Virus record (IMG/VR): IMGVR_UViG_2778261349_000002
Coordinates: 1 to 8,400 of that record
Source of the DNA: a virus
Taxonomy: Duplodnaviria > Heunggongvirae > Uroviricota > Caudoviricetes
DNA: 8,400 bases
Direction: 5' to 3' (one strand)
Positions 7,589 to 8,399 of this stretch are shown piece after piece. The first letter of the stretch is position 1. Each line of letters opens with the position of its first letter. Below the pieces are notes generated by a model, which worked only from the letters and a program-made list of their open reading frames with translations, had not been told where the DNA came from and ran no database searches. The translations under genes and the position numbers were made by a program.

Positions 7589-7626
7589 GCCGGACACAAG
7601 CAAGCATCCGGCATGCTCTTTAACAA
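7589..7626 (+). promoter_or_regulatory. Hairpin followed by an rrn-type boxA motif; candidate antitermination (nut-like) site or weak terminator
   Basis: Stem gccgga / tccggc (7589..7594 / 7607..7612) with a 12-nt loop, then TGCTCTTTAACAA at 7614..7626, which matches the E. coli rrn boxA as recalled. Lies on the predicted PL-like transcript just after the YdaF-like gene. Confidence 0.4.
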
Positions 7627-7637
7627 TCTGGATATCC
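7625..7637. repeat. Left copy of a 13-bp perfect inverted repeat (AATCTGGATATCC) flanking the AT-rich cassette
   Basis: Exact reverse-complement match to 8192..8204. Contains the palindrome GGATATCC. Sits 15 bp beyond the stop of the cassette gene. Confidence 0.4.
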
Positions 7638-7651
7638 ATAACAGTAACAAT

Positions 7652-8143
7652 CTACAGATTGCCGTTCAGTTTTCTGGCCAACTCCTCAATAGATGGAGGC
7701 GATACATAATCCGGATTTTTATTCATAAGAAACTGATTTTCACAGTAGAGGCACCTGCTTTTATGAAAAAACTCATGTTCTCTAACCGGGAATGGTTGAA
7801 GTATCGATACTATCTTTTGTCCAAAACATTTTGGACAAAGATGCATGATTATGCTGCCGCCGTTCACGGTTACCTCCTTCGAGTACACAAAAGTTCCCGA
7901 CTCAAGTTGGTTAAGGATATAACCTTCCGTCTGAGCCTCAAAGTTTTCAAATTCTGCAATTTTAGCTTTGAGAGAAGCATTTATTTCTTGATAAGTGCTC
8001 ACCAGCTCAACGAGAGACACGCATTCGTGCTGAATAGATGCAAGCTTTGAGTTCAGTTCACCAATAGCCGCATTTACTTCAGCTTGAGTTTTTGCCTCGT
8101 TCATTAGTTTTGCAATCTGAGCGGTTTCACGAATAGCCGTCAT
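7652..8143 (-). CDS. Coiled-coil plus C4 zinc-ribbon protein of unknown function (163 aa from ATG 8143; track ORF 7652..8209 starts at a TTG)
   Basis: N-terminal half is Ala/Glu/Lys/Gln-rich, consistent with a coiled coil. C-terminus carries CPKC ... CLYC (Cys-x2-Cys-x24-Cys-x2-Cys). About 40 percent GC against about 52 percent in flanking phage genes. The opposite-strand ORF 7613..8050 looks like its antisense shadow. Confidence 0.6.
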   Translation of the reverse strand: MTAIRETAQIAKLMNEAKTQAEVNAAIGELNSKLASIQHECVSLVELVSTYQEINASLKAKIAEFENFEAQTEGYILNQLESGTFVYSKEVTVNGGSIIMHLCPKCFGQKIVSILQPFPVREHEFFHKSRCLYCENQFLMNKNPDYVSPPSIEELARKLNGNL

Positions 8144-8156
8144 TGCTGCCGTTAAT

Positions 8157-8399
8157 TCAGCGATCACATTCAATACTCTTATTGTTGTTGGGGATATCCA
8201 GATTAACAAGATCCTTGTTGTTGGGGAATAACAGGTCCACCTCGCCTGACGTGGTTAAAAGCAGGCACACAACACGAAAGCGCTCGGCGAAGTTAGTCTC
8301 TCTGTATATGTCGTCGTTAAATGTAATTCGATCGTGCGCTTCCGGTTGTGGCAATCCGCGAAATGGCGCGGCGGTAAGTATGGCTGGGGCTTCCTCCAT
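8157..8399 (-). CDS. Hypothetical protein, probably C-terminal part of a gene that starts beyond the window end
   Basis: ORF track 8157..8399, but the listed ATG is 2 nt from the window edge so the frame may continue beyond it. Ends 13 nt upstream of ATG 8143 of the cassette gene. A competing plus-strand frame opens at ATG 8308 and runs off the window. Confidence 0.3.
   Translation of the reverse strand: MEEAPAILTAAPFRGLPQPEAHDRITFNDDIYRETNFAERFRVVCLLLTTSGEVDLLFPNNKDLVNLDIPNNNKSIECDR
8182..8228. repeat. Two direct repeats TTGTTGTTGGGGA (8182..8194 and 8215..8227) flanking the right copy of the 13-bp inverted repeat (8192..8204)
   Basis: Read directly. Repeats are 33 bp apart (about three helical turns), at the GC-to-AT composition boundary, upstream of the cassette gene start. 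Confidence 0.45.

Follow-up and report, generated by a model that had tools for sequence, protein, structure and literature searches.

The stretch of viral DNA analysed here comprises 8,400 nucleotides of a member of the Caudoviricetes (positions 1 to 8,400 of the IMG/VR record IMGVR_UViG_2778261349_000002) and is referred to in its full length as the window. Near its end it carries a minus-strand gene, at 7652–8167, whose product of 171 amino acids, on sequence grounds, belongs to the recently described Rip1 (ring interacting pore 1) family as a new member. The gene lies in a mosaic block (7614–8274) that is probably a single-gene moron, consisting of a Rip1-family defence gene and insulating flanks, and the 13-bp inverted repeat found around the gene would represent two copies of one flank motif.

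The relationship to Rip1 is supported by both sequence and predicted fold. A phmmer search against the PDB returned a single relative, chain 9oox_L, named 'ring interacting pore 1 (Rip1)' (E = 2.2e-7), and a profile built from 19 family members matched the same chain with an E value of 2.7e-17, aligning positions 6–154 with positions 16–161 (149 of 167 positions). Comparison with Rip1 by hhalign gave 98.5%. When the AlphaFold2 (AF2) model was searched with Foldseek against the PDB, 9oox_M was recovered with an E value of 5.6e-7, a probability of 1.0, a template modelling (TM) score of 0.70 on the target, and 28% identity; no match other than 9oox_M/L fell below E 1e-3, and none but Rip1 fell below E 0.2. 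The two proteins are similar in length (171 and 164 amino acids), and both CxxC pairs align with those of Rip1. A tblastn search identified Rip1 as gp37 of Escherichia phage HK446, and the PDB entry 9oox, released on 2026-02-04, is titled 'HK446 Rip1 in complex with T6 small terminase'. The window protein thus shares with the family homology over most of its length and a fold with a four-Cys zinc ribbon, and its gene is likewise a temperate-phage accessory gene near an immunity region, where it would be expressed in the lysogen. It is a distant member, about 25–28% identical to Rip1.

One report presents Rip1 as a defence encoded by a prophage, in which 12 Rip1 cap an 11-mer terminase, and suggests a pore-based mechanism (PMC12908700); another describes it as a sensor of the small terminase subunit (bioRxiv 10.64898/2026.04.30.721860). 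A preliminary description of this DNA had proposed an exclusion or defence function for the gene, and the profile search and the AF2/Foldseek comparison support this proposal in that the protein is homologous to a prophage-encoded defence. A defence role against phage is accordingly supported by homology; by analogy with Rip1, the protein may also bind the small-terminase ring and act by pore formation and abortive infection.

The coding sequence (CDS) begins at a GTG and corresponds to RefSeq WP_000559918.1; in PHROGs it falls only in the unnamed family phrog_1244 (E = 2.9e-56). The preliminary description had placed the gene at 7652–8143, which is right as to strand, but it started from an internal ATG and so lost 8 codons of the real CDS. 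The GTG start is confirmed by an alignment of 19 homologues, which keep the additional N-terminal MIAELSAA, and it is preceded at a distance of 9 nt by a Shine–Dalgarno-like AAGAG (8176–8180, minus strand), whose GAG is invariant across the aligned upstream regions. The AF2 monomer model (mean predicted local distance difference test, pLDDT, 88) consists of helices 2–24 and 28–79 followed by a C-terminal four-Cys zinc-ribbon beta domain. The four cysteines (Cys111-x2-Cys114-x24-Cys139-x2-Cys142 in the 171-residue numbering) are invariant in the 19 homologues, and with the model they confirm the order of helices and C-x2-C-x24-C-x2-C ribbon read earlier from the translation. The least conserved part of the gene is its last third. 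Within the CDS, a perfect palindrome of 11+11 nt (TTTGTCCAAAA TG TTTTGGACAAA, 7816–7839) coincides exactly with the codons that encode the first CxxC knuckle (LCPKCFGQK).

The window gene and HK446 rip1 are alike in several further respects. Both proteins combine helices with a four-Cys beta domain, are of similar size, and are homologous over nearly their full length; both are prophage-encoded and antisense in an early-left operon near the repressor, rip1 standing just after N in the PL operon. An upstream promoter region of about 109 nt is also homologous between the two genes. They differ in that the window protein belongs to a separate clade (phrog_1244), so far restricted to Enterobacterales prophages, and lacks the first ~10–15 residues of Rip1, whereas HK446 rip1 has neither the AATCTGGATATCC repeat nor the boxA-bearing 3' flank, to which a terminator is added in most relatives of the window gene.

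The block has the properties of an acquired accessory unit. The same flanks occur without it in 689R5, HannyBb, E. coli RM9131, and E. coli strain 222, and in 689R5 no more than about 30 bp separate the counterparts of window positions 7613 and about 8250. In phage PhiR49_1, the block (7615–8274) is present at 94.6% identity but between cI and yfdP, with quite different neighbours. As it is absent from relatives with the same flanks and present elsewhere, it is a mosaic accessory block, and the earlier suggestion of an acquired accessory gene holds. Part of that suggestion drew on composition, and the low GC content is real relative to the immediate flanks (0.411 for 7614–8274 versus 0.52–0.53, with 0.493 for the whole window), but positions 5600–6700 of the window are as AT-rich as the block. 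The Rip1-like gene is antisense to the early genes and convergent with the repressor gene in every locus examined. It was found in 653 of 5,426 complete E. coli genomes, O157:H7 included, and its clade is confined to Enterobacterales and annotated 'hypothetical' everywhere. The superfamily as a whole counts 2,301 representatives at 50% identity (E <= 1e-3). The orf25 of the Mu-like Pseudomonas phages D3112, DMS3, and MP38 and a relative in MP42 are 31–33% identical to HK446 Rip1, so the superfamily reaches beyond lambdoid phages.

The left arm of the inverted repeat, AATCTGGATATCC on the plus strand (7625–7637), lies 15–27 nt after the stop codon and adjoins the boxA reverse complement in relatives; the right arm, GGATATCCAGATT on the plus strand (8192–8204), lies 25–37 nt upstream of the GTG and overlaps the predicted -10/start region. 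The exact 13-bp match is confirmed, and the pairing extends to 26 nt at 81% complementarity (7625–7650 with 8179–8204). The core of each arm, GGATATCC, is a palindrome, and for this reason GGATATCCA occurs also as a 9-nt direct repeat. By chance, 8.4 kb would be expected to contain 0.58 perfect 13-nt inverted repeats with arms at any distance, or 0.14 with arms within 1 kb of each other, which agrees with the earlier estimate of about 0.5 and with the caution that the repeat by itself is weak evidence. Its placement had been regarded as the notable point. Most of the relatives carrying the gene have a repeat at the same position: 11 bp in a Salmonella relative (70% amino acid identity), 14 bp in Cronobacter (51%), and 10 bp, or 15 with one G.U pair, in Enterobacter (50%). 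The right arm is kept at -37, -36, and -31 in the Salmonella, Cronobacter, and Enterobacter relatives, respectively, and in a few loci the repeat is degenerate or lost. Recurrence at the same position in such distant relatives indicates a selected feature and not chance.

The arms are not the ends of the block. Comparison with related prophages places its edges at 7614 and at about 8250–8274, that is, 11 bp outside the left arm and 33–70 bp outside the right arm, so the repeats do not mark cassette boundaries as had been proposed and travel with the gene as internal flank elements. The gene does lie between the arms, but a bracketed cassette is not an apt picture of a block that exceeds both arms and whose right arm falls within the conserved region of the gene's own promoter. 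Across 21 loci representing more than 12 enterobacterial genera, about 100 nt upstream and 25–50 nt downstream of the gene are conserved far above the gene itself, with an identity of 0.79–0.84 in the upstream flank versus 0.62 in the CDS, a value that falls to 0.47 when third codon positions are taken alone. We favour a reading in which both arms of the inverted repeat are copies of a single conserved flank motif, the right one associated with the promoter and the left one with boxA.

In the upstream flank, TAATCT (8200–8205, minus strand) is the predicted -10 element of the gene's own promoter. It aligns with TAAAAT of HK446 rip1 and TAATAT of a relative in 689R2, and it is because of this alignment with -10 candidates of the Rip1 clade that the right arm is taken to overlap the -10/start region. 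A 17-nt spacer separates it from a weak -35, TTCCCC (8223–8228, minus strand). Two direct repeats of TCCCCAACAACAA on the gene strand (8182–8194 and 8215–8227), 33 bp apart, stand just before the Shine–Dalgarno sequence and at the -35; in HK446 rip1, TACCCCTACAG occurs twice at the same positions, 34 bp apart. Farther upstream, the element GCCTGCTTTTAACCACGTCAGGCGAGGTGG (8237–8266, minus strand) precedes the gene in all relatives and also precedes HK446 rip1. Its form common to the window gene, HK446 rip1, and the 689R2 relative is GCCTG(T)CTTTTAACCAC.TCAGGC..GGTGG (window 8237–8266; locus L032 3357–3388; locus L002 about 3820–3850). The element is present as well at 'empty' sites of the dicB operon such as that of HannyBb, and two variant pairs within it (C with GA; TC with TC) always occur together.

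In the downstream flank, the early-operon strand carries TGCTCTTTAACAA (7614–7626, plus strand), the single exact match in the window to an rrn-type boxA with the start of its spacer; the rrn boxA-spacer sequence is given as ugcucuuuaacaauuua (PMC2724277, Table 1). It stands where early-operon transcription enters the block, with the left arm immediately after it. The transcribed strand has the rrn-type consensus UGCUCUUUA ahead of about 0.6 kb that is antisense and untranslated. In 15 further loci, GCTCTTTAAC is found at the corresponding place, and all of the retrieved loci together contain just one copy elsewhere. The flank has the consensus GGATATCCAGATTGTTAAAGAGC, after which most loci carry AAGCGTCC-N4-GGGCGCTT-T6, and the opposite strand reads (C/T)GCTCTTTAACAA. 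The terminator hairpin of the relatives has a G.U pair on the gene strand where the other strand has C.A, and in 17 of the 19 loci the gene-strand form of the hairpin is the more stable. In the window, the canonical terminator is replaced by a 3' hairpin, GCCGGATGCTTGCTTGTGTCCGGC (7589–7612, minus strand; -16.6 kcal/mol), which has no T-run. HK446 has no such boxA beside rip1, which follows N and nutL.

That this boxA is simply the nutL of the prophage was considered and rejected, as its spacing to the gene is constant in PL, PR, and dicB-operon contexts and a Symbiopectobacterium locus (L019) has a separate nutL-like site. At L019 1990–3480, the order is palindromic operators, the module boxA, the antisense Rip1-like gene, a boxA-like CGCTCTTTTTA with the hairpin GGCACCGACAACGTGCC, and an N-like gene. 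With the module boxA and the nutL-like site before N, the early-left transcript of this locus would carry two boxA elements.

On this basis, and by analogy with HK446 Rip1, the protein would be made in the lysogen at a low level from a weak constitutive promoter. Once an incoming phage produces its small terminase ring, late in infection, the protein may oligomerise on that ring and open a pore in the membrane, which would end the infection ahead of progeny release. The long N-terminal helices may be the oligomeric or membrane-active part, while the four-Cys zinc ribbon would keep the beta domain at the C terminus together. The 3' flank is thought to act as insulation: in most relatives, an intrinsic terminator would work in the gene direction only, and boxA would let early-operon transcription cross the untranslated antisense stretch of about 0.6 kb without Rho termination. 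Upon induction of the resident prophage, convergent transcription would silence the Rip1-like gene.

Several points weigh against this account. Scans of the protein against Pfam, NCBIfam, and PADLOC 2.0 gave no significant match; its protection against phage is argued from homology, and since identity to Rip1 is low, its trigger could differ from that of Rip1. A consensus scan of the gene strand found no sigma-70 promoter or terminator, the -35 is poor, and the window copy lacks the canonical terminator that most relatives have. The antiterminator function of boxA (NusB/NusE binding and Rho-resistant elongation) is predicted from its sequence, and antisense silencing on induction is likewise a presumed step. 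The favoured reading of the repeat also leaves unexplained why the same 13-nt motif serves both ends.

A rival view of the repeat, to which we give limited credence, is that the arms are two sites for one DNA-binding regulator, possibly the zinc-ribbon protein itself or a host factor, which would repress the weak right-arm promoter with the left arm as an auxiliary site via looping. Each arm is conserved as a sequence and not as a pair, each contains the palindrome GGATATCC, and the right arm lies over the predicted -10/start region; moreover, HK446 rip1 and its relative lack the motif and have other sequences there, as would be expected of a clade-specific operator. However, no candidate regulator was identified, no DNA-binding role is known for the Rip1 fold, and the distance between the arms differs from locus to locus, the 3' spacer being anywhere between 0 and about 50 nt long. 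To our knowledge, no known binding site matches the AATCTGGATATCC motif.

In a further, tentative proposal, which we regard as rather unlikely, the block is a self-insulating antisense module whose flanks serve both strands. The gene strand would have its promoter and, in most relatives, a one-way terminator, and the opposite strand would have boxA and an arm with its complement about 555 nt downstream, so that polymerase crosses the gene and the RNA is perhaps looped out or processed, in a miniature version of the rrn leader design. Like an rrn leader, in which boxA precedes the first strand (5' half) of the RNase III stem of 16S RNA, the window has the exact boxA TGCTCTTTA plus ACAA, directly followed by a sequence complementary to the far end of a long untranslated stretch. 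Unlike in the rrn leader, the stem is short (13–26 bp) and without covariation, and it would belong to the early operon of a phage where this runs across an antisense gene.

The stem itself is the most interesting alternative for the repeat, yet a doubtful one. Here the arms would be the halves of a long-range, rrn-like stem on the early-operon transcript, where boxA loads Nus factors and pairing over ~555 nt loops out or processes the RNA of the antisense gene, sparing the dicF/dicB operon. The left arm does follow boxA immediately, a predicted duplex between the flanks (-11 to -31 kcal/mol) is kept at every locus, and the 26-nt window duplex pairs at 24 of 26 positions on the early-operon strand if G.U is allowed; some lineages, such as L019, keep another part of the complementarity. 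Against a selected stem, there are no compensatory changes, covariation being 0.034 versus 0.042 in shuffles (19 pairs) with 391 of 500 shuffles as high. There is no clear strand preference, the antisense duplex having the greater stability in only 12 of 19 loci (mean -25.8 versus -24.3 kcal/mol), and in several loci RNase III would have only a short helix of 9–15 bp to act on. Neither flank folds locally any better than shuffled sequence on either strand, apart from the left flank on the plus strand (z = -2.15), where the signal reflects backbone hairpins. Rfam gave no match in 7350–8400 at gathering or permissive thresholds.

As to the protein, it is improbable that it is a transcription factor of the DksA/TraR kind or a kil-like host-killing or lysis-timing protein in place of a terminase-triggered pore. 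DksA and TraR also combine a coiled coil with a four-Cys zinc site in a small, often phage-encoded protein, a superficial likeness, and dicB and kil-type genes are nearby. But the spacing of the Cys pairs and their beta-domain context follow Rip1, with which the domain containing the zinc ribbon aligns end to end. Neither zf-dskA_traR nor any other Pfam family matched (E <= 0.1), Foldseek gave nothing except Rip1 below E 0.2, and DksA and TraR were absent among the 50 top-ranked Foldseek PDB matches listed.

The least probable explanation by far, a small mobile or invertible element with transposon-like terminal repeats, a palindrome target duplication, or phase-variable switch sites, could draw on the 13-bp inverted repeat around about 555 bp (a typical inverton size), on the 9-nt direct repeat GGATATCCA, on the presence or absence of the block among relatives, and on GGATAT(AT)CC-like palindromes in empty sites, but the block edges are not at the arms, the sequences outside the arms stay with the gene wherever it occurs, the block has no linked recombinase gene, the inverted junction occurred in 0 of the 683 E. 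coli genomes matching its halves (raw reads were not examined for low-frequency inversion), and the virtual empty palindrome AATCTGGATATCCAGATT was found only 4 times in IMG/VR, always in unrelated coding contexts. A model in which the block entered an 18-bp palindrome and duplicated 8 bp was discarded, since IMG/VR contains no empty palindromic target, and neither the 683 genomes nor IMG/VR gave a sign of transposition, target duplication, or inversion such as a transposable cassette or inverton would leave. The empty sites at L034 (about 1265–1310) and L003 (about 3705–3745) contain a hairpin-like CTGAC...GTCAG enclosing GGATATATCC or GGATATTTCC; these sequences resemble the arm core GGATATCC and lie roughly where the block sits in the window.

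Taken as a Rip1-family moron, the block may be compared with lambda RexAB and lambda/P22 SieB, which are also accessory genes by the repressor or PL, expressed in the lysogen and protecting against other phages. RexAB protects through membrane depolarisation. These genes are co-oriented with their operons, whereas the window gene is antisense with its own signals, and no sequence or fold similarity of the Rip1-like protein to RexAB or SieB was found in profile and Foldseek searches. The annotation of the gene as 'hypothetical' is explained by the Rip1 structure dating only from February 2026 and by the absence of the family from Pfam, NCBIfam, and PADLOC 2.0. Recognising the clade would add many pathogenic E. 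coli, Salmonella, Enterobacter, and Cronobacter, together with insect symbionts, to the carriers of a new terminase-sensing defence, and it supplies diverged sequences for studying how trigger specificity is encoded. The architecture of the flanks may be new, and their conservation suggests a rule by which lysogen-expressed genes can be inserted in reverse into essential early operons without disrupting them.

A 1.1-kb query (7300–8400) matched E. coli strain 00-3076 (NZ_CP027584.1) at 100%, where the host element is a lambdoid prophage adjoining potC. The plus strand of the window carries two repressor-like genes, a PaaA2/ParE pair, a promoter-like site (7178–7207), and ydfA (DUF1391), and the minus strand carries cro-like, cII-like, and replication genes; DicF and dicB lie just past the window end. 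From this gene order, with ydfA before it and dicF/dicB beyond, the Rip1-like gene sits between them, inside a dicB-type early-left operon but on the opposite strand. The preliminary description had put the gene just beyond a PL-like promoter; it is indeed downstream of 7178–7207, but on the opposite strand. In the loci L002 (4033–4084) and L003 (3961–4012), the DicF small RNA lies ~90 nt past the sequence homologous to the window end, so dicF is only just outside the window, and the spacer whose processing yields DicF is split by the block. An open reading frame (ORF) at 8157–8399 on the minus strand, spanning the right arm, was rejected as a gene: RefSeq does not list it, the same conserved DNA is read in other frames in relatives, and the ORF falls in the non-coding spacer upstream of DicF.

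Other genes of the window include a hok/sok type I toxin–antitoxin system at 618–942 (minus strand), with an Rfam sok match at 768–942 (113 bits) and a Hok/Gef ORF within 618–830, where the RefSeq CDS is shorter. The PaaA2-type antitoxin and ParE toxin genes (6629–7108, plus strand) directly follow the repressor genes and precede the 7178–7207 site. The two repressor-like genes (5808–6179 and 6139–6660, plus strand) are in tandem and overlap; their C-terminal halves are clearly related (LTPNQLELLQIFSAFPDNEQQ... and ITPNQKELLQTFEAFPEEDQQ...), and a recognisable HTH_3 domain is present in the second (6139–6660) only.

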